Shown in pieces: positions 4,904 to 59,645 of a stretch of DNA of 64,000 nucleotides; positions within the stretch are counted from its first letter, which is position 1; each line of letters starts with the position of its first letter. This DNA is from an uncultured bacterium. GTDB lineage: Bacteria; Patescibacteriota; Kazan-3B-28. Location: positions 477,456 to 541,455 of the forward strand of contig OY968788.1 in assembly GCA_963695435.1 (NCBI GenBank). The letters run 5' to 3'. The notes beneath the pieces are model-generated. The model was not told where the DNA came from. It made no database searches and was given only the letters and a program-made list of their open reading frames with translations. A program made the translations under genes and the position numbers.

Positions 4904-7900
4904 ATGTTCAAGCGACTCTTTGGACAACGTAAATACTTATCAGCCATTACGGCTGGGATTTTAGTTATCCAAACCTTCCTCCCCTCTGCTTGGGGTGTGC
5001 CAAAAGTGTTTGCCGAAGATGGTTTGACTTATACTTTGAGTTTTGATGATGCCGCCGATTACACAACCGATAGTAATATTGCCATTGGTCAGGATTTGAT
5101 GTATTTCAAAACCACTTGGAATCCAACGACCGATGGAACAGAGTTGGGCGGAGCTAATGATCCCGTAATAGATCTCGTTCCTGACTCGAGTGGCACAATT
5201 TGGGCAGTATTGAATGGCGGAGATGTTTATTATTCTGAAGATTCTGGAGCCACTTGGACTATAAAGGCAATCACGGGGATAACTAATACTCTTGAAATCG
5301 CGGAGGTAACATATGCTACAACTCCGGGAGTGGATTTGGTCGCGGTTGGCGAAACAGTTTCTTACTCTAGTGATGGAGGTGCGAACTGGACTGGGGCAAC
5401 GCTTCCCGTTATGGCACCGACTACATATGTAGCGGTTTCAGCATCTTCAGCGAACGGAGTAGCATATGTTGTAACATCAGATAATCCTGCGAAGGTTCTC
5501 GTAACAAGTGACGGCGGAGCTAACTGGGCGCTGACCGGCCAACAGCCAGGTACAATTGCCTCGGCTATTGATATCGCTTGGATTAGCTCCAATATTGTGG
5601 TGCTTGTAGGAAATGATGGCGGAACGGGTGGTGTTTTGGAATATTCAATGAACCCTGCCTTGATACCATGGGCCACTAAAGATTTGCCTGACACCGAACC
5701 ACTTCTGACTGAGGTGGATTATATCAACGGGAAAATTTATGTAGCGGGTGCTTCGGGAGCATTGGATGGTGTGTACATTGCCGTAAGTACTGACTTCAAC
5801 CCTAGCGGAGCTTGGACTAATCAGTCATCTGATTTGGTGGCGGATTATGACTTGGTTTATATATCCGATCTTTTAGGCAACAGCAACATTCCATTTTTTG
5901 TTGGTGCTGGGGGAGATAGAAAATCCGCCGTGTTCTGTAGTTTCGATAGTGGAGCCACTTGGCTCGAACAAAGCAACACTGCGCATGATGATTTAGGAAT
6001 TGCCCAATGGAGCGCGTTGGCAATTCAACCAACCACCAACTGGCTACTGATGGGAGGTGCTTTGGGCGGCAAGACCGATATTTTCTTAGGCAAGTATAGC
6101 TTGGCCAGTTCTTCAATCGTTGCCACAACTCCAATTTACAATGCTGTAAAAATTACGGCCCTTTCTGTTACAGAACATTCGCTAAGCAACGGCGAAGCTA
6201 AGTTTGCGTTTAGTCGGCAAAGTACTGATGCCGGCGAATGGTATTACTACGACACGGGCGCTAGTGCTTGGACGGCGGACGCCTCGGCGGATGATTCATC
6301 GAAAGCCAACACAATGGCGGAATTGACCGAAGTAGTTTTGGGCACAATGTTGGACACTATCCCCGCCACCGATTCGGCGCTTTATGTAAAAATCTATTCC
6401 CAAAATGCTACTGGGCAAATGTTGATTGCGGATAGTGTAACTATTACATATAACACTGCCGTTCTTGGGGGTGGTGGAGGCGGGACTGATGAAACTCGTC
6501 CAACTTCCAATATCAATCCTCTCCCCCGCTACACTACAGTGGCAGACGCTTGCAACCCCACCTTACATGTCACTGCTACTGCTACCGATGACAGCAGCGG
6601 AGTAAAACGGGTAACCTTGTATGTCGCTACAGATGACGACAAAATGCCTACTAGTTCTTTTGGTACTCTTTATTACGGGGAAGGTGTCGATCCGGAGTGG
6701 GAAACGGTAGGTTGGGAAGTCCCTGTAGATGATGGAAAAACTTATTATTTTGGAACTGCCGCAGCAGACAACGCGGGAAATTACGAACTTAAGTTCACTA
6801 GCAAGCAGGATAGCTATGGAAATTGGATAATAAGTGGTTGGAGTCCTCCCACCACGGTTTATGTTTATTCTCCTTACTTGGTAGAGTCTAAACCAGCCGA
6901 GGGAGAAGGAAGTTGGCCGACTGGTCAACCGGTGTCTCTCGAGTTTTCCGAATATATGGATCCCGGTAGCCTCACTTACAACTTTTATTCAGCAGAGGGC
7001 GAAGTGCCCAGTTCTGTTGTATGGAGCGATAAGAATGAAGATGAGACTGGTGCCAAAATCGCAACCATCACTCCCACTTCGAATGACGGCATACTGCTAG
7101 AACTGACTCGTTATAATTTCAGAATTAAAACCGCGACTGATTTGGCGGGCAATCGGATAGTGGATGTGGACACCCACTATACTTGTGAGCTCCAAGACGA
7201 AATCCGTTCTCCCCTACTCTTCTCATTCACTACTGCCAAGGAACCGCATCCGAACCTAACAAGTTCTAAACTGCAAGTGGCGCTTGGTTCTCACAACGGC
7301 AAGTACGCAGTGGGAGAAGAAGTGGAATATACCCTATATTTGCACAACACAGATAAAACAGTTGATGCTCCTAGCGTTACCGTCACTATTATTTTCGTAG
7401 ATGGGATTTCTTATGTTAGCGACAACAGTAAGGGTGGACTCTTCAGAAAATTAGAAAATAAAGGAAAAATAATTGGGCTGGAGTGGACAGGAAGTGTACT
7501 AAGAGACAGTGTCGTTGAGCCAAAATTCACGATGAGGGTAGGGGTGGATGGCTATGCCGCTCAATTGACTGTTGAACAGAACATGACCCTCAACGATGGT
7601 ATTAACGGCGACTTCACGCCAAGCCAACCTGCTATTTTCAATATAGTGCCTGATTCTCTTTTTACTACTTCCGAAAAAGAGTCTAACCGAACTGAAACTG
7701 TCGCGCCTGGCGCCGTTGTTACCTACACCGTAACCATTTACAACACAGGTTCTACGGTTGGTGATGTTGCCATTAGCGACCTTGTGCCGAGACATTATGA
7801 CAGTGCCTATGATACGCCAGAGTTTTATTATTCAGATCCTTCAATAGATACTGATGATAAACGCTGGTTAGACGAGTCCCCGTCATGGGACAAGGATACC

Positions 7901-9745
7901 GAAACCATCACAGGATTTGCGCAAGGCATTCAGAAAAATGACCCTCCCCTAGTCTTCACTTTCAAGGCGGTAATTCGTGATGTAACCGAAAAAAAAGATG
8001 TGACAAATACCGCTTATGTTTGGGATCCGAATATTGGTTCCGATGAACAAACTTCGCTTACTTCAAGCATCCATGTCTCGCCAACTGCGGAAAAAGATCC
8101 GTTGCAGGTTGTTTCTCAAAGCCCTGCACCAAATAGTGAAAATAACGGCTTCAAACAAAGTATCATAGTTGGCTTCAACTATCCTGTGGATCCCGAACAA
8201 TTCGAGTTTTCGTTATCCAACGAATTAGGGAGCGACACCACAACCTGGGGTCAGGCTTGGGACGAGACTAATACGATATTTACACTAACCGCACCTACGG
8301 ACGATCCCCTTTATGACGGGTTCCCTGGCGAACTAGCGGTTGGTTCAACTTATACAGTCACTATTATTTCGGCTGTTTCTTCAGAGGAAACTGTCGAGCC
8401 GTTGGAGAACCCCGTCACTTGGCAATTCACCACCGCTGACCCGTGGGTCAGAATTACTTATCCTTTTAGCAAAACAAATGAAATAAGAACCAACACTCTT
8501 AGCGACCTTTATACTGTCACTTTATGGGATACCATCTCCGACCGACCGTATATCGCGGAAGAGGATATTACATTAAATGTTTCTGCCAGTTTCGGCATTC
8601 ATTCACGCGACAGCGGGAAGTTTTGGAAACGAGACAATAACAACAATCTTGTCACTTTCAATGCTGGCAATCCGTTAGTGGTCCCCGAAGGAGCCAATGA
8701 GGCTGCTTTCTACTACAAGGATTCTGAAATTACTCCCATCCCTCTCATCCCTTCTGATCCTTGGTGCGTTACGATTCTTGTCGCCGATAGTTGGCCTGTT
8801 AACCAAGATCGGGGTTGGTCTGACGACCAAACATTTGTAACCGTGGTCGATACTGAACAGCCATTGCAGTCGCTGGTAATCAATCTGCCAAGTACGCCAA
8901 TCAATGTTAATAAGTTCAGCGCCCCAATCAGAATCACTGCCAAAGATGCCGAAGACCGCTCTGAATTCTTGCCCAAAGGAAACATATACTTCTATAGCGG
9001 TAGAATTACGGGAGCATTCTATGATGCCTCACAGCGCAAACTCCCCTACTTGATAACCGCCCAAGAAGAGAGTACCGAAGTTGTGCCGCAATATATTTTG
9101 AGTGACGGAAGCAAGTCGAGCATTACTGTGTATTATCTCGATTCCCAGTCGGGTAAGAATATTATGGTGGTCGCGGATAACTCCATATATGAGCCCGATA
9201 CTGGATTCAACGATGCTGTTGCATTCTTGAATGTCGAAGAAAAACTCGAAGAAGAAGAGCTGCTTGAAGAATTGGAAGAAGTGATTGATGACACAGGTCG
9301 GGTAATTGACAAGATGGTTATCAAGCCCGTTGAAGCCCAAATGTTGCCGGGCAAAACTCAACTCTTCAAAGCAACTGCGTACGATACCGAAGGTAAACCA
9401 ATTGATAACGCCAAGTTCAAGTGGTTCGTACTAATCGACCAAAGCGGAACCATCAAGAAGGATGGTGACGATAAGACTACCCATCGGAGTACCTTTACTG
9501 CTGGCGAAGAATTGGGTACCTATTACGATACGATTCTGGTTGCTACTTTATACAACGGCAAAATCGGTTATGCGACTGCTAGTGTGGCAGTGGTAGATGT
9601 AGTTGATTACAAAGGACCACAGAGATTACCTGTCACGGGTATGAATGGACTACAATTAGTATTGATGGGTTTGACCTTGCTGGCAGCTGTCGCTCTGGCT
9701 TGGGTAGAACATTACGATAAGACACATTTTAAGGCCACAAAGTAA
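4904..9745 (+). CDS. Giant secreted BNR/Asp-box repeat surface protein with C-terminal LPXTG sorting signal (1613 aa)
   Basis: Signal peptide. At least 4 SxDxGxTW Asp-box motifs (SEDSGATWT, SSDGGANWT, TSDGGANWA, SFDSGATWL). Ends LPVTG + hydrophobic stretch + HYDKTHFKATK. Confidence 0.8.
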   Translation: MFKRLFGQRKYLSAITAGILVIQTFLPSAWGVPKVFAEDGLTYTLSFDDAADYTTDSNIAIGQDLMYFKTTWNPTTDGTELGGANDPVIDLVPDSSGTIWAVLNGGDVYYSEDSGATWTIKAITGITNTLEIAEVTYATTPGVDLVAVGETVSYSSDGGANWTGATLPVMAPTTYVAVSASSANGVAYVVTSDNPAKVLVTSDGGANWALTGQQPGTIASAIDIAWISSNIVVLVGNDGGTGGVLEYSMNPALIPWATKDLPDTEPLLTEVDYINGKIYVAGASGALDGVYIAVSTDFNPSGAWTNQSSDLVADYDLVYISDLLGNSNIPFFVGAGGDRKSAVFCSFDSGATWLEQSNTAHDDLGIAQWSALAIQPTTNWLLMGGALGGKTDIFLGKYSLASSSIVATTPIYNAVKITALSVTEHSLSNGEAKFAFSRQSTDAGEWYYYDTGASAWTADASADDSSKANTMAELTEVVLGTMLDTIPATDSALYVKIYSQNATGQMLIADSVTITYNTAVLGGGGGGTDETRPTSNINPLPRYTTVADACNPTLHVTATATDDSSGVKRVTLYVATDDDKMPTSSFGTLYYGEGVDPEWETVGWEVPVDDGKTYYFGTAAADNAGNYELKFTSKQDSYGNWIISGWSPPTTVYVYSPYLVESKPAEGEGSWPTGQPVSLEFSEYMDPGSLTYNFYSAEGEVPSSVVWSDKNEDETGAKIATITPTSNDGILLELTRYNFRIKTATDLAGNRIVDVDTHYTCELQDEIRSPLLFSFTTAKEPHPNLTSSKLQVALGSHNGKYAVGEEVEYTLYLHNTDKTVDAPSVTVTIIFVDGISYVSDNSKGGLFRKLENKGKIIGLEWTGSVLRDSVVEPKFTMRVGVDGYAAQLTVEQNMTLNDGINGDFTPSQPAIFNIVPDSLFTTSEKESNRTETVAPGAVVTYTVTIYNTGSTVGDVAISDLVPRHYDSAYDTPEFYYSDPSIDTDDKRWLDESPSWDKDTETITGFAQGIQKNDPPLVFTFKAVIRDVTEKKDVTNTAYVWDPNIGSDEQTSLTSSIHVSPTAEKDPLQVVSQSPAPNSENNGFKQSIIVGFNYPVDPEQFEFSLSNELGSDTTTWGQAWDETNTIFTLTAPTDDPLYDGFPGELAVGSTYTVTIISAVSSEETVEPLENPVTWQFTTADPWVRITYPFSKTNEIRTNTLSDLYTVTLWDTISDRPYIAEEDITLNVSASFGIHSRDSGKFWKRDNNNNLVTFNAGNPLVVPEGANEAAFYYKDSEITPIPLIPSDPWCVTILVADSWPVNQDRGWSDDQTFVTVVDTEQPLQSLVINLPSTPINVNKFSAPIRITAKDAEDRSEFLPKGNIYFYSGRITGAFYDASQRKLPYLITAQEESTEVVPQYILSDGSKSSITVYYLDSQSGKNIMVVADNSIYEPDTGFNDAVAFLNVEEKLEEEELLEELEEVIDDTGRVIDKMVIKPVEAQMLPGKTQLFKATAYDTEGKPIDNAKFKWFVLIDQSGTIKKDGDDKTTHRSTFTAGEELGTYYDTILVATLYNGKIGYATASVAVVDVVDYKGPQRLPVTGMNGLQLVLMGLTLLAAVALAWVEHYDKTHFKATK

Positions 9746-10372: not shown

Positions 10373-10913
10373 TAAGTTTGTAGAGAGTAATAAGTAGTTG
10401 GTAGTTGTCATGCTCGAACCCGACTTGTCGGGGGAAGCATCTATTATAGATTCTTCCTAGCGTCAGAATGACAAAAGTGGTGTGGATAACGAAAAAATCT
10501 TTTCGCTTCCAGACCGCACTTTTAACCCAAAACACCTCTTATCTATTGCCAAAGGCAATGTTTTAGAGTATATTGATATAATTTGGTGGTGACATTGACA
10601 ACTTGAACGGAGAGTAACGGAAATTGTCGCGATATCTTTGGTCTATAAGTCTATCGTCTATTAGTCCATTGTCTATTGCTCCAATTCCCGCTACTGTCCC
10701 GCGGGGCGCATAGTAAAAGTCTAGGTTCGAAAGATTCTAGGCACAAAACTAAAACAAAAAATGCCCCATACGTTTTTCTTCCTTCGGGGGGAATGCGGCG
10801 GAATGGTCTCTGGGGTTGTACCTCAAAGCCGGCCTAGGGCGCTTCATATTTTATATAAGCGACCAAAATAGGTCGGCTTTCTTTTTGTGTATAAGTCCTT
10901 TGTGGTAGAACTA

Positions 10914-10968: not shown

Positions 10969-11865
10969 TTAGGAGCCGTCTGTGAGCCATAACCCATTAT
11001 GGATTACCGTGCGAGCTCCATTGATAGTTGCGACTATGATGTCATATGCCGTGTAGGTTTTAATCGGTAGATATGGCATCTCAAAGATGGCTCTACTCGA
11101 TAAAGGGGTGTAACTCATCAAGGTCGCTTGATAGACGTTATCAGTGTCATGTTCGCGGATAGAGACAGTCAGCCCAGATTGTTGGTTTGGCCAGTTTGTA
11201 CCGGTAAGAATGATTAGTCCAGTGACTTCGTAATTGCTAATAGTTGGAGATAGTGCAGAATCTTGCTTTATTTCTACTGCCGGTCTCTCTGGAACAGGCA
11301 AAGAAGGTGTCTCAATAACAGTACTTCCACCAACAGGGGCTTCGAGAACTTCCAATGCTCCCTTAAGATTAGTTGAAATACCGGGAGCACTTACGATTAG
11401 GTCGTATGTTCCAATTTGATCAGTGGTCCAGGTGGGATATTCGATGATCAGTCGATCCCCTTGTGGTCCGAAGGCTCCTGGAATATACCTTGTAATTGAG
11501 AAATTGACTCGGTCGCCGGTTTTTGAATTTTTCAAAAACATTTCCATCCCTAAACCAGAGGCCAAGAAGTCATCTGGTCGAATCTCTCCTCGGCGACTAT
11601 CTACGTAGTATGCCCAGTATGATTCTGGGAAATTTACGAGATATAGAGCCGCCTGATGGCTTACGCCTTCTCCAATAAAGGTGGTCTTTGGCACTATACT
11701 TATTGGAGTTGGTGCAATAAATGGCGGGGCGTCAGAACCAAAAACATAAGCCCAATCGCCAGATGATCCTGTTATGGCTGCTTGTGCGACATTTCCAGTT
11801 TTTGGCCAGAGAACAATCGCTAATCCAGCTAGCAGAATAACGCCTATATATACGATTTGTTTCAT
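10969..11865 (-). CDS. Secreted hypothetical protein (298 aa)
   Basis: N-terminal signal/TM segment (IVYIGVILLAGLAIVLW). No recognisable catalytic motif. Confidence 0.6.
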   Translation of the reverse strand: MKQIVYIGVILLAGLAIVLWPKTGNVAQAAITGSSGDWAYVFGSDAPPFIAPTPISIVPKTTFIGEGVSHQAALYLVNFPESYWAYYVDSRRGEIRPDDFLASGLGMEMFLKNSKTGDRVNFSITRYIPGAFGPQGDRLIIEYPTWTTDQIGTYDLIVSAPGISTNLKGALEVLEAPVGGSTVIETPSLPVPERPAVEIKQDSALSPTISNYEVTGLIILTGTNWPNQQSGLTVSIREHDTDNVYQATLMSYTPLSSRAIFEMPYLPIKTYTAYDIIVATINGARTVIHNGLWLTDGS

Positions 11866-12578: not shown

Positions 12579-12968
12579 TTACGGACGGACGAATGATTTG
12601 GAGCTTTTGATGAGACCGCTGATTAACTTGTGTACTGTGACGGCTTGATTGGCTAGTGGGTCAAACTGGGACTGGACAACATGTCCGATGTCTCGTGCAA
12701 CCAGCAGTTGATTTTGCAATTCCGTCACAGAGCCTTGAGAGATGGAGTAGAACTGGACTTTTTCCCGATACGATTGTCGACTAAATCCTTCAGCTAGATT
12801 GGAGGTAATGGATACTGCACACCGTTGCATTTGGCTGATAAGCCCATAAGTCTCGTTGGCAGGAAAGGTTTTGGTCAGGGCATAAACCATAATAACCAAC
12901 TTGTGCCCCTCTTGCCAAGCATTCAGGTCCGTAAAGCTCTTTATCCTCCTCTCCCCCTCTTGATTCAT
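12579..12968 (-). CDS. Four-helix-bundle protein (TIGR02436 / 23S rRNA IVS protein family; Avd-like)
   Basis: Characteristic NAWQEGHKL...EGFSRQSYREKVQFYSISQGSVTELQNQLLVARDIG sequence of this family. Confidence 0.8.
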   Translation of the reverse strand: MNQEGERRIKSFTDLNAWQEGHKLVIMVYALTKTFPANETYGLISQMQRCAVSITSNLAEGFSRQSYREKVQFYSISQGSVTELQNQLLVARDIGHVVQSQFDPLANQAVTVHKLISGLIKSSKSFVRP

Positions 12969-50008: not shown

Positions 50009-50082
50009 GGGTCCGTAGCTTAGTGGTAAAGCAGTTGCCTTTTAAGCAATTGATGCAGGTCCGATTCCTGCCGGACCCACCA
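50009..50082 (+). tRNA. tRNA-Lys (anticodon UUU)
   Basis: GGGTCCG acceptor pairs with CGGACCC, D-loop AGTGGTAA, anticodon loop CTTTTAA, T-loop, encoded CCA. Confidence 0.9.
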
Positions 50083-51599: not shown

Positions 51600-52325
51600 T
51601 TAGGCTACTTTTACGATACCCAATTTTACCAGCTCGGCACGAGCCACGCGGTAGCGGGGGATAGTCTGAAGTTTTTGAAGTTCCTTTTTCACGACATTGG
51701 GAGAAACTTTTTTAAGAAGCCCTCCGCTGATTTGAATAGCCGCCCAGGTCGCATTGTCGTATTTGAACCCAAGTAAATGACGAAATCGAATTGCCCTAAG
51801 AATTCGGATAGGGTCTTCCTGGAAACGAATCATCGGGTCACCGATAATGCGAATTCGTTTTTTCTTGATATCCTCCATACCTCCCACATAGTCTAAGTAC
51901 TTCCCAGTTTTGGGGTTCAAGTAAATGGCGTTGACGGTGAGGTCTCGGCGGGGTGCGTCTTGGGCGGCGACTGACACAAATTTAATTTCATCGGGGTAGC
52001 GTTTGACCAGCTCTAATTCCTGACGATAAATATCATGACGAAAAGTAGTAATTTCAAAATGAAGTTGGGCATAGGTGAAAGACACCACACCAAATTTCTC
52101 ATCGACAATAGTGGGGGTAATATTGTTGCGCTCTAATACTTTTACCACTTGGTTTGGACGAGCACTGGTGGCAATATCAACATCGGCTCGGTCTGATTCA
52201 ATGCCAAGCAAACGATCGCGGACTTGGTTACCCACCAAGTATGAAGAGTGACCGGCATCCTGTAGCCAAAAAACTGGAGTGTTGATATCTGGTTTACGCA
52301 TTGAGGTTGAATAGAGTTCGGGCAT
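51600..52325 (-). CDS. tRNA nucleotidyltransferase / poly(A) polymerase family protein, head+neck only (241 aa)
   Basis: Pol-beta-type nucleotidyltransferase motif GNQVRDRLLG...DVDIAT. Lacks the long C-terminal body and tail domains. Confidence 0.75.
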   Translation of the reverse strand: MPELYSTSMRKPDINTPVFWLQDAGHSSYLVGNQVRDRLLGIESDRADVDIATSARPNQVVKVLERNNITPTIVDEKFGVVSFTYAQLHFEITTFRHDIYRQELELVKRYPDEIKFVSVAAQDAPRRDLTVNAIYLNPKTGKYLDYVGGMEDIKKKRIRIIGDPMIRFQEDPIRILRAIRFRHLLGFKYDNATWAAIQISGGLLKKVSPNVVKKELQKLQTIPRYRVARAELVKLGIVKVA

Positions 52326-57670: not shown

Positions 57671-57922
57671 AAAGTTCAGCCGTGTGCAAATTACTTTTTA
57701 CATACAATGCCGAGTTTATAGATACCCCTAGGGGGTGTCAATAGTGATTTTTCGTTGGTAGCCCGACGGGACATGTTTCCCCATTGCTATGGGGCCCCGC
57801 CGTTCGCCGCATTAGGGTAAACCCAACAAATTTATAGAGCGGTCTCACGCACGAACCCATGCTTCGCAGGGTTCGACTCTTGGTTGACCACCAAAAAACT
57901 CCGATGAATCGGAGTTTTTCGC

Positions 57923-57997
57923 TGGTAGCCCCAACGGGAGTCGAACCCGTCTTTTCAGATTGAAAATCTGACGTCCTAACCGATAGACGATGGGGCC
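57923..57997 (-). tRNA. tRNA-Glu (UUC)
   Basis: Cloverleaf with anticodon loop TTTTCAA. Encoded CCA. Followed by bidirectional terminator hairpin at 57893-57919. Confidence 0.85.
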
Positions 57998-58177
57998 TCG
58001 TCGCAACAGTGTCGCTCTGACGGTCAGCTCGGCAAGTTCGCTGACCTATTGAAGCTTCACGTTGCTCCTCTCGAATTCACAAACAGCCTACGGCTTGGTT
58101 TGTGAATTCGGATTTTTTGCTCAAACCTAAAATAACAAGTTTGAACAATCGCGAGGAATTCTCTGAATGTTAAGTTC

Positions 58178-58252: not shown

Positions 58253-58448
58253 TCGTCAGAATGGACTCGACCTTACGCTAACACCTTCGACAAGCTCAGG
58301 GTTGCTTTTAGCCTCGTCATTCCTCCTTTCAAAATCACAAACAGTCGCTTCGCTCCTTGGTTTGTGATTTTGTGTTTGGGTTTTCAAACTAATCCCGATC
58401 CCGAATCTAGCTGGTCTGCAAATCGTCTGCGACGATTCTCGTTCCAAC

Positions 58449-58525
58449 TGGCGCCCCGGGCAGGGATCGGACCTGCGACCTACTGCTTAGAAGGCAGTCG
58501 CTCTAATCCACTGAGCTACCGGGGC
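58449..58525 (-). tRNA. tRNA-Arg (UCU)
   Basis: Anticodon loop CTTCTAA. Acceptor GCCCCGG/CCGGGGC. CCA encoded. Confidence 0.85.
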
Positions 58526-58557
58526 AAATTATATCAACTTATCAATGTTGTCTGCAG

Positions 58558-58633
58558 TGGGGTGAGCGACGCGGATCGAACGCGCGACCGCCTGGACCAC
58601 AACCAGGAGCTCTACCACTGAGCTACGCTCACC
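58558..58633 (-). tRNA. tRNA-His (GUG) with encoded G-1
   Basis: Anticodon loop TTGTGGT. Extra 5' G opposite discriminator C. CCA encoded. Confidence 0.85.
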
Positions 58634-58717
58634 CCACTAAAGACAACTTATTAATTTCCGATGTAGTTTACCTACTTCTTGACCTCACTACAATGCCCTC
58701 AAATTTAACATACTTCA

Positions 58718-58794
58718 TGGTACCCCCGACAGGATTTGAACCTGTGGCCTTTGGAACCGGAATCCAACGCTCTAATCCACTGAGCTACGGGGGC
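58718..58794 (-). tRNA. tRNA-Arg (CCG)
   Basis: Anticodon loop TTCCGGT. CCA encoded. Confidence 0.85.
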
Positions 58795-58890: not shown

Positions 58891-59274
58891 TTAGCAAATG
58901 GGGGAGTGAGTTTCCAGTTGCTTCAATGCGGATTGCATTTCAGCTTTGGTCATTACAAAAAACTGGAGAAAACCTAGTTGCGAAACTTTTAGCCCACGGA
59001 AGATACTTTTACATTCTCTCTCAACCCTTCTTTCCGTCCACTGGGGATAGAGCTCATGCAGGAGCTCATGAATCAGGGTGATAACGCGGTCGTTGATGCC
59101 AATAGCCTTATTAATGTAGATTTTCAATTCATCCGGAACGATGTACCCTTTCGCCCCTCGAGACCGAGCTTGGCTTTTTTTGGGGAGAAGTTTATTTACC
59201 AATATCACCCGATAGCCCGACTGGACTAGGGTACTTTTTAATTTGTTAAAGATAGTTTTTGTGTTGGTTTTCAT
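58891..59274 (-). CDS. Small HExxH-motif protein (putative minimal zinc metallopeptidase; SprT/DUF45/ImmA-like)
   Basis: LIHELLHELYP...E...ECK motif. Own canonical promoter at 59320-59348. Confidence 0.5.
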   Translation of the reverse strand: MKTNTKTIFNKLKSTLVQSGYRVILVNKLLPKKSQARSRGAKGYIVPDELKIYINKAIGINDRVITLIHELLHELYPQWTERRVERECKSIFRGLKVSQLGFLQFFVMTKAEMQSALKQLETHSPIC

Positions 59275-59319: not shown

Positions 59320-59348
59320 ATTATATCATAAAAACCTCACTCCGTCAA
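59320..59348 (-). promoter_or_regulatory. Sigma70-type promoter TTGACG-17-TATAAT for the HExxH gene
   Basis: Minus strand reads cccTTGACGgagtgaggtttttatgaTATAATcaaa. Confidence 0.55.
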
Positions 59349-59570
59349 GGGTAGGAATACTGGCTCTGGGAGTGTTATCCACACAAATTTGATTCTGGAG
59401 CGGGTAGGGGGAAATGTATCCCCATTGCTATGGGGCCCCGCCGTTCGCCGCATTAGGGTAAACCCAACAAATTTATAGAGCAGTCTCACGCACGAACCCA
59501 TGCCTTCGGCAGAATGCGACTGCGCACTACATTCTCCAACGCAAAAATCGGGGCAAGCCCGATTTCGCGT

Positions 59571-59645
59571 TGGAGCGGGTAGGGGGAGTCGAACCCCCGT
59601 CGCCAGTTTGGAAAACTGGAATAATAACCGTTATACGACACCCGC
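59571..59645 (-). tRNA. tRNA-Gly (UCC)
   Basis: Anticodon arm CCAGT-TTTCCAA-ACTGG, T-arm GGGGGTTCGACTCCCCC, CCA encoded, followed by terminator hairpin at 59547-59563. Confidence 0.85.

Follow-up and report, generated by a model that had tools for sequence, protein, structure and literature searches.

The DNA analysed here, a stretch of 64 kb referred to as the window, carries seven tRNA genes and one tmRNA gene, and its gene content (HU, RuvX, RecX, a short MetRS, SmpB and large surface proteins) points to a Patescibacteria genome; a contig that encodes the identical HU protein bears the class label Kazan-3B-28. Immediately 3′ of tRNA-Gly(tcc), on the tRNA strand, lies a gene-less unit of 175 bases, and a sister unit adjoins tRNA-Glu(ttc). 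Covariance-model scoring, proposed as a check in the original prediction, gave 57.1 bits for tRNA-Gly and 62.9 bits for tRNA-Glu with Rfam (gathering score 29), so that both genes score as intact. The two loci comprise the following features.

59571..59645, minus strand: tRNA-Gly(tcc), from ARAGORN and Rfam, intact; its last 17 nt (59571-59587) are the proximal repeat
59543..59565, minus strand: terminator-like hairpin and T-run (AAATCGGGCTTGCCCCGATTTTT) right after CCA, from sequence, fold and inverted repeat
59512..59539, minus strand: degenerate inverted (antisense) copy of tRNA-Gly nt ~76-49 (TTGGAGAATGTAGTGCGCAGTCGCATTC), from local alignment to the reverse complement
59501..59511, minus strand: small hairpin H1 (TGCC-GAA-GGCA), apex of the fold-back, from sequence
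59493..59500, minus strand: direct copy of the T-stem 5′ strand plus TTCG (TGGGTTCG), from alignment
59413..59492, minus strand: conserved core of ~80 nt, from RNAalifold and pair counts
59396..59412, minus strand: distal direct copy of tRNA-Gly nt 60-76 (TCCCCCTACCCGCTCCA), from an exact-match scan
59320..59348, minus strand: promoter-like site TTGACG-17-TATAAT of the next gene (127-aa ORF, 58891-59274), from a promoter scan
57923-57997, minus strand: tRNA-Glu(ttc), adjoined by the sister unit
57756..57922, minus strand: sister unit (copy 1) after tRNA-Glu, from sequence, alignment and fold
57893-57919: resident terminator of the sister unit
57869-57893: its inverted tRNA copy
57860-57868: its H1 hairpin
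57852-57859: its copy of TGGGTTCG, followed by the core
57756-57771: its distal copy

The promoter-like site ahead of the 127-aa gene is kept in all relatives; it lies outside the Gly unit and marks the return of native sequence. Syntenic loci of about a dozen lineages were retrieved via the HU protein and homologues of the 127-aa protein encoded downstream of the Gly unit. The nine units compared below come from about six lineages, all from a few syntenic loci of one clade.

Elsewhere in the window (51600-52325, minus strand), a protein of the CCA-adding/poly(A)-polymerase family has only 241 aa and consists of the head domain alone; its orthologues in relatives measure 233-243 aa. It may be of interest given the tRNA-end mimics nearby.

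Anatomy of the units

Exact matches to TGGAGCGGGTAGGGGGA number two in the window (59396-59412 and 59571-59587), which bears out the claimed duplication of the tRNA-Gly 3′ end; the distal copy had been placed one nucleotide off, at 59395-59411. Even with two mismatches, only 0.01 matches are expected by chance, and two matches occurred in none of 100 dinucleotide shuffles. The spacing between the repeats, first given as about 160 bp, measures 158 bp. Also confirmed was the block common to the Glu and Gly loci (57768-57862 and 59409-59503), which is 95 nt long and 97% identical; one 46-nt stretch from it has two occurrences, with 0 expected. The duplicate at the Glu site is inexact, the single identical block being only 9 nt long (GGGCTACCA) when GTCCCGTC-GGGCTACCA is compared with CTCCCGTTGGGGCTACCA. 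The homologous junction that had been noticed ahead of the tRNA copy at both loci was confirmed; all family members have it, in the form A(A/T)ACA followed by 0–3 variable nucleotides.

Across the family, units are non-coding and 108–199 nt long, which agrees with the proposed miniature element family, and they stand after tRNA-Gly, tRNA-Glu, tRNA-Arg(tct), tRNA-Lys(ctt) and tRNA-Lys(ttt), bearing out the use of different tRNAs. The layout seen at Gly, with direct repeats of the tRNA end and an intact tRNA, is found in eight other units. On the tRNA strand, a full unit reads CCA, a terminator made of an A-tract, a hairpin and a T-tract, an inverted copy of nt ~76-49, and H1; after H1 come the T-stem 5′ strand plus TTCG, the core, A(A/T)ACA with 0–3 nucleotides, and the distal copy. 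Units at tRNA-Lys(ctt) have neither the terminator nor the inverted copy. The terminator hairpin and its flanks form a long palindrome that takes in the CTCCA of the tRNA, and the inverted copy, which begins with TGG, lengthens it further. The consensus scan did not flag the Gly-site terminator because its stem runs into A/T tracts. An inverted tRNA copy is also present in the window's Glu unit, in L020, in L028 and in units K1 and K3 of L016 (L numbers denote relatives' loci). Every unit with such a copy has a hairpin at the H1 position, with stems that differ (UGC/GCA, UUGGC/GCCAA, CCUG/CAGG).

In the nine-unit alignment GGTTCG is invariant. The distal copy spans nt 58/61 to 76 (nt 64-76 in one unit type), starting at nt 58-61 in seven of the eight full units and measuring 16–19 nt where intact; repeat blocks across units are 6–19 nt when exact and 12–25 nt when approximate. 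As the original prediction had proposed, the repeat is target-derived: the terminal segment of every unit matches the 3′ end of the tRNA it follows and tracks the local allele. The distal T-stem strand is CCCCC or CCCGC according to the local tRNA-Gly, the T-stem copies at tRNA-Lys(ctt) match the alleles of L016 (GAAGG..CCTTC) and L024 (GGAGG..CCTCC), and the equivalent of nt 51 is G in the Gly and Glu units and A in the Arg and Lys units, as in their tRNAs. Beyond the distal copy, the sequence is that found directly after the tRNA in L007, a relative with an empty site. On this anatomy, the 17-nt repeat is the outermost part of a folded-back tRNA 3′-half copy in which the T-loop has been swapped for the core. 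What had first been noticed is just the outermost 17 nt of a longer tRNA-derived frame.

Structure and strand of the core

The core structure was obtained with RNAalifold from the alignment of nine units, with shuffles (500) and six slid registers as controls. At the Gly site it consists of the following elements.

59488-59490 with 59442-59444, minus strand: P2 (3 bp), from RNAalifold
59480-59484 with 59447-59451, minus strand: P3 (5 bp), from RNAalifold
59456-59465, minus strand: H2 hairpin, in the core
59420-59435, minus strand: H3 hairpin (6 bp), from RNAalifold

P2 and P3 are nested, with a GA/GA-type internal loop between them, and enclose a TATAAT-like (TATAAA) box, UUUGUUG and H2. After these follow GGCGGGG, H3 and AUACAUU. 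The core measures ~80–100 nt in the family and ~80 nt in the window, and two units have different extra hairpins inserted at one common loop position. In helices P2, P3 and H3, 92.5% of cells are paired over the nine units. Changes on both sides were counted at seven pairs and in 16 cells, compared with shuffle values of 3.0 and 5.2; 0–1 of the 500 shuffles equalled these values, and all six slid registers gave 0. The P2 triplets alone occur in five Watson–Crick kinds (CGU/ACG, CAU/AUG, UGC/GCA, CGC/GCG and CAC/GUG). We conclude that the core is a conserved folded structure kept by compensatory substitutions, and its compensatory helices exceed those of the shuffled and slid controls, as in a generic structured non-coding RNA.

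The sense strand folds more stably than the antisense strand in six of the eight full units; taken by itself, the core shows no unusual stability (z about −0.1 to −2.3). In three units one P3 pair is an A.C mismatch, which on the opposite strand would read G.U, and the strand assignment is therefore tentative, leaning toward the tRNA strand. A promoter scan found no sigma-70 consensus promoter inside the unit, the promoters detected belonging to downstream genes. An internal sigma-70 promoter was rejected, the TATAAT-like box being conserved but lacking a −35 element. Since a terminator-like hairpin lies ahead of the unit and no internal promoter was found, transcription has to be assumed.

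Several other pairings were considered. GGCGGGG can pair with nt 61-67 of the tRNA copy, with several G.U pairs on the tRNA strand. A further RNAalifold helix, GGUUC/GGGCC, was not adopted, since it never varies and is incompatible with H3. Each of the two window units has a segment farther upstream that is able to pair with the 5′ strand of P3, with a matching change between the units and to the exclusion of P3 (GCAGUC/GACUGC in the Gly unit, 59517-59525 with 59480-59485; GGUGGUC/GACCGCU in the Glu unit, approximately 57880-57890 with 57835-57845). This stem, S1, overlaps P3 and is absent from the units of other lineages, and was set aside as a lineage-specific or alternative fold. Neither strand of the core could be read as a cloverleaf or pseudo-tRNA, since one 5′ sequence would need different acceptor-strand partners, and a T-box reading (UGGN against NCCA) was discarded too, having no Rfam match and the wrong location.

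The direct–inverted–direct order of the tRNA copies, with a hairpin at each turn (terminator and H1), could also come from repair or replication, the unit being a functionless triplication produced by snap-back template switching at quasi-palindromes (terminator, T-arm) and the core unrelated filler. Tandem-inversion duplications by snap-back switching are said to have been described by Kugelberg and Roth. The tRNA loci of this clade are rearrangement hot spots, with 5′ tRNA fragments, an inverted tRNA-Lys and a swapped tRNA-Arg order, and one type of locus has a homing-endonuclease-like ORF and a replaced tRNA-Gly. However, such a by-product leaves unexplained why the same core stands at the T-loop position of five different tRNAs and why its pairing is kept by compensatory changes over ~25% divergence. 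This reading, already disfavoured, seems to us very unlikely.

Presence, absence and age among relatives

Related genomes were also checked for empty sites, as suggested originally, and these were found at both the Gly and the Glu loci. In L007 and L018/19, the end of tRNA-Gly is joined directly to the sequence that, in the window, lies past the distal copy, and homologous units fill the site in L028-30, L026/27 and L020. The same site holds a repeat termed module B together with one unit reduced to a diverged 3′ half and another to a stump in L001/L016, a remnant in L024, a LAGLIDADG-like ORF with a different tRNA-Gly allele in L021-23, and unrelated genes with no repeat in L039 and L042. The Glu site is occupied in the window alone and lacks the unit in L016, L018, L020, L024, L026, L030 and L040; the terminator that precedes the window's Glu unit is already resident in L024 and L026. 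Units were also found at tRNA-Arg(tct) in L028 and at tRNA-Lys(ctt) in L016 and L024, and tRNA-Lys(ttt) of L016 is followed by three units in tandem, one chimeric and one truncated. In L017, two assembly gaps fall at unit-bearing tRNA sites, one of them within tandem units. Further relatives (L039-L043) yielded no new units, and the more distant L031, with 67% identity in the neighbouring protein, has other repeat modules and not this unit. Within this sample, the family appears confined to Kazan-3B-28-like Patescibacteria, directly 3′ of tRNA genes and on the tRNA strand.

Between the window and L028, identity is 80.6% for the Gly core and 77.1% for the neighbouring 127-aa gene. Since the core diverges about as fast as its neighbour, the Gly-site unit is probably old and vertically inherited, with several losses or replacements; unit-bearing lineages are scattered over the clade in a rough tree of the neighbouring gene. 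The Glu unit, on the other hand, is absent from the closest relative, L016 (92% identical), and its core is 97% identical to that of the Gly unit, which suggests a recent copy made from Gly after the split from that relative. The left parts of the two window units are non-homologous (51% identity) while the cores are 97% identical, indicating that the recently shared entity is the core and not a bounded transposon.

The chimera in the L016 tandem combines an alpha-type core with the 3′ half of another type, and the last unit there is truncated just upstream of the next gene's promoter region. In L016/L017, tRNA-Lys(ttt) is inverted (L016 19628-20270) relative to the window (50009-50082), L018, L020 and L026. 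The spot between tRNA-Gly and the 127-aa gene holds differing cargo genes among relatives (L039 606-3297, L042 1746-2276, L020 8913-9854 and L024 9133-9840), which encode two ice-binding-domain proteins, a histidine phosphatase and a secreted protein of 235–313 aa; none is flanked by tRNA-end repeats. The extra gene of 301–313 aa by the Gly locus of L020-L023 was excluded as a component of the unit: its product is secreted and has no Pfam match, it lies outside the repeats, and it is unrelated to the 301-aa ORF of the window.

Searches for enzymes and known families

No integrase, transposase, recombinase or reverse-transcriptase domain was detected in the 30 window ORFs tested, and Pfam annotation of the genes called in the relatives' retrieved loci revealed no integrase, transposase or reverse transcriptase. 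With Rfam 15, whose scope included tRNA-like RNAs, tmRNA, T-boxes, transposon-associated RNAs, retron msr and ribozymes, the window gave only tRNAs and tmRNA at gathering thresholds, and no family matched the units at E ≤ 10 (window region) or E ≤ 1 (L016, L020 and L028); the units thus match no described RNA family among its covariance models. Two scans of viral contigs with degenerate core motifs and blastn searches of phages and plasmids were likewise negative. Scans of genome and metagenome contigs with a gapped motif derived from two variants (TTTGTTGGG..AATNGNGANACATNTCC), which is probably too strict, returned one known relative and chance matches in coding DNA without tRNAs.

A 129-aa protein encoded in the window (12579-12968, minus strand) belongs to Pfam PF05635, the 23S rRNA intervening-sequence protein. 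This four-helix-bundle family includes the Avd proteins of DGRs; no reverse transcriptase was detected adjoining the gene.

The original prediction attributed the repeats to att-core duplication by an integrase. Each unit would then be a miniature non-autonomous integrative element (attP-only, CIME-like), a ~170-bp circle with a tRNA-end core that a tyrosine integrase encoded elsewhere would insert into, and excise from, tRNA 3′ ends; the repeats would be its attL and attR cores, and repeated integration would have produced the tandem arrays. The units do have flanking direct repeats of the tRNA end and a restored, intact tRNA, and empty, filled and tandem sites occur among relatives. Minimal attP lengths cover units of ~170 bp. 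The repeats are bounded where T-loop and T-stem meet, a sublocation known for integrases in tRNA genes (bioRxiv 10.1101/2020.11.02.365908), and tandem islands with repeated tmRNA ends occur in Dehalococcoides (PMC3146451). Against this stand the absence of a recombinase from the 30 window ORFs and the annotated loci of relatives, of cargo genes between the parts of any unit, and of viral, phage or plasmid matches. Integrases are site-specific, and a single attB core would be expected, yet one core family is combined with at least five tRNA cores. An attR would carry a contiguous tRNA-like segment with a pseudo-T-arm, whereas the distal segment of the units is interrupted where the ~80-nt core takes the place of the T-loop. 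An inverted tRNA copy is present, the left part is unconserved between units with 97% identical cores, and the core's long-range helices covary, which counts against att arms because these are not expected to show compensatory changes. An integrase model would need a trans-acting enzyme elsewhere in the genome, and it leaves the multi-tRNA use, the split T-arm, the inverted copy and the covariation unexplained, and we consider this mechanism unlikely.

Like known tRNA-targeting integrative elements and CIMEs, such as the ssrA islands of Dehalococcoides (PMC3146451), the units follow an intact tRNA on its 3′ side, carry a direct repeat of its 3′ end beginning close to the T-loop, and show the empty/filled/tandem polymorphism. 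They differ in having neither integrase nor cargo, in their length of 108–199 bp, in joining one core to five tRNA ends, and in their T-loop-split tRNA-like segment, inverted tRNA copy and covarying structure.

Alternatively, the units could be remnants or non-autonomous derivatives of a ssDNA transposon (an IS200/IS605-like PATE or a REP-like element), their end hairpins being read as folded ssDNA, possibly with a right-end RNA that uses the flanking tRNA as a 3′ ‘guide’. They are rich in hairpins, have no conserved terminal inverted repeats and keep a single orientation relative to the tRNA, and conservation of structure is compatible with ssDNA. The TnpB right-end RNA consists of a scaffold followed by a site-specific guide segment, and in the units, too, a conserved scaffold precedes a site-specific segment of ~16–19 nt. 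Yet no TnpA, TnpB or IscB was found in the window or flanks, and Rfam gave no match to a transposon RNA. Elements of the IS200/IS605 type make no target duplication, whereas a target-derived one is present here, and the low copy number and diverged paralogues also speak against this origin, which we regard as highly improbable.

Like REP/BIME sequences, MITEs and intergenic hairpin repeats, the units are short, gene-less, hairpin-rich and variably present, and they lie between a gene's end and the next promoter. In contrast to these, they lack both a target duplication of fixed length and conserved terminal inverted repeats, and they combine a much larger multi-helix core with tRNA-specific flanks. 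Membership among the MITEs is further contradicted by left ends that are unconserved (51%) and by repeat blocks of varying length.

Other rearrangements at tRNA loci

Module B (GTCTTCGC ... GCGAAGAC) is a second repeat family, ~60–110 bp long, with a 9-bp terminal inverted repeat and no copy in the window. It was located in L016 (about 9628-9731 and 11461-11567, and a part at 10724-10767), L020 (about 8717-8810), L021 (about 8780-8838) and L024 (about 8898-9005 and 11009-11082). Most copies start right after a CCA, which belongs either to a genuine tRNA or to the tRNA-like terminus of a unit; the partial copy in L016 (10724-10767) lies ~57 nt past a tRNA.

In L021 (8040-8720; also L022 2504-3184, and L023), a 226-aa ORF whose product has an N-terminal HTH and the LAGLIDADG-like motif LGLGIYIGEGS is found directly upstream of, and overlapping, the different tRNA-Gly(tcc) allele. 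L020 has a near-identical neighbouring gene, yet an ordinary tRNA-Gly followed by a unit. These arrangements suggest that the tRNA-Gly gene of L021-type loci was replaced through the action of a homing endonuclease. Just upstream of intact tRNA-Gly and tRNA-Lys(ctt) genes, orphan 5′ fragments of these same tRNAs occur in L024 (about 8709-8740 and 10781-10815) and L031 (about 7377-7400), so 5′ halves have been duplicated as well as 3′ halves.

Repeated hairpin modules with perfect 13-bp stems and ~82–84% identical copies, unrelated to the unit, occur in the tRNA-Glu, tRNA-Lys(ctt) and tRNA-Arg(tct) spacers (window 58062-58115 and 58320-58377). Around tRNA-His, 22-nt complementary leader and trailer segments (window 58547-58568 and 58626-58647) would extend the acceptor stem by about 11–15 bp and may form a processing stem; relatives share this arrangement, and it also surrounds tRNA-Lys(ctt) in L016, L024 and L031. 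The order of tRNA-Arg(ccg) and tRNA-Arg(tct) (window 58449-58794) is swapped in the window and L016 relative to L018, L020, L024, L026 and L028, with the strand kept.

Discussion

The unit behaves like a tRNA-site integrative element in its repeats and intact tRNA but departs from such elements in the features that define them, and no described RNA or mobile-element family matches it. Our preferred explanation, held tentatively and with somewhat less than even confidence, is a clade-specific family of structured RNA or ssDNA modules framed by pieces of the resident tRNA 3′ half. The core would act as a folded single strand, most likely as RNA on the tRNA strand, made by read-through from the tRNA or from the internal TATAAT-like box and having a 3′ end that imitates the T-stem, acceptor strand and CCA of the tRNA. 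Units may be lost by deletion between the direct repeats and occasionally copied to another tRNA locus, here from Gly to Glu, both flanks being re-derived from the new tRNA. For the copying, we prefer template switching or recombination at GGTTCG and CCA, which offer universal microhomology, to a site-specific integrase; the boundary at nt 58-61, the 16–19-nt distal copy and the variable junction nucleotides fit template switching, be it by a reverse transcriptase like that of Neurospora retroplasmids or by replication snap-back, better than site-specific recombination. This step, suggested by anatomy only, is the weakest part of the argument. Candidate roles of the RNA are a tRNA 3′-half mimic or anti-tRNA, a processing or termination module, or a purely selfish existence. 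A stronger version, which we think rather unlikely, would make the unit a new kind of small mobile structured RNA element, placed at the T-loop position of a fold-back tRNA 3′-half copy and spreading through RNA or template switching, with flanks rebuilt for each target tRNA and without an integrase or transposase of its own.

Also to be weighed is retro-insertion by a template-switching reverse transcriptase, in which cDNA starts at or switches to the CCA, copies 16–19 nt as far as the T-loop (where a modified A58 would block it) and joins the element RNA, the hybrid cDNA then entering the tRNA locus by homologous recombination. This mechanism was reportedly described for mitochondrial retroplasmids of Neurospora by Akins in 1986 and by Chiang, Kennell and Lambowitz in 1994; variants of the Mauriceville and Varkud plasmids are said to have tRNA 3′ ends, including CCA, joined to them and to integrate through hybrid cDNAs. 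The start of the distal copy at nt 58-61 would follow from such a process, its length resembles the 18-nt limit of retroviral primer-binding sites, and the 0–3 variable nucleotides between the conserved AAACA and the tRNA copy are as found at template-switch junctions. The antisense copy of the tRNA end is initiated with TGG, the flanks are re-derived for each tRNA without a site-specific enzyme, and the element behaves as a structured RNA. On the other side, no reverse transcriptase was found within the 64-kb window, the m1A58 modification is not known for these bacteria, and the inverted copy extends to nt ~49, past the supposed stop. The CCA is genome-encoded here, so an RNA intermediate would leave no diagnostic mark. 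We know of no bacterial precedent for such a mechanism, and we find it unlikely. The retroplasmids resemble the units in their tRNA-derived repeats, integration at a tRNA gene without an integrase and tRNA-like 3′ end, but they are mitochondrial plasmids of 3.6 kb encoding their own reverse transcriptase, and none was seen for the units within the window.

With tRNA-like RNAs (the tRNA-like domain of tmRNA, YrlA and viral examples), the units have in common a GGUUCG T-loop-type motif and a 3′ end composed of T-stem strand, acceptor strand, discriminator and CCA. They differ from these in that the usual 5′ acceptor strand is missing, the complementary 5′ segment also pairs with the CCA, no Rfam family matches, and the 3′ end is copied from the neighbouring tRNA and is not the element's own. 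Archaea have non-canonical tRNA introns and split tRNA genes, which likewise place an insert in the T-loop region of a tRNA-derived sequence with a complementary leader-like sequence nearby. The units, however, contain only a 3′ half, adjoin an intact tRNA and occur in a bacterial host in which no splicing endonuclease is expected.

The 3′ ends of tRNA genes are classic integrase landing sites, and a short tRNA-end repeat is usually taken for an att scar. The Gly repeat belongs instead to a gene-less module with conserved pairing and with inverted and direct copies of the 3′ half of the neighbouring tRNA. Should the module be an RNA, it would be a mimic of tRNA ends not described before, in a group (the Candidate Phyla Radiation) whose tRNA processing and CCA addition look reduced. 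Should it be mobile, it would move among different tRNA genes with no site-specific recombinase involved; this would represent a novel mode of tRNA-gene targeting and would call for caution with island-finding software that relies on tRNA-end repeats. In these small genomes, tRNA loci are hot spots at which modules are rearranged.
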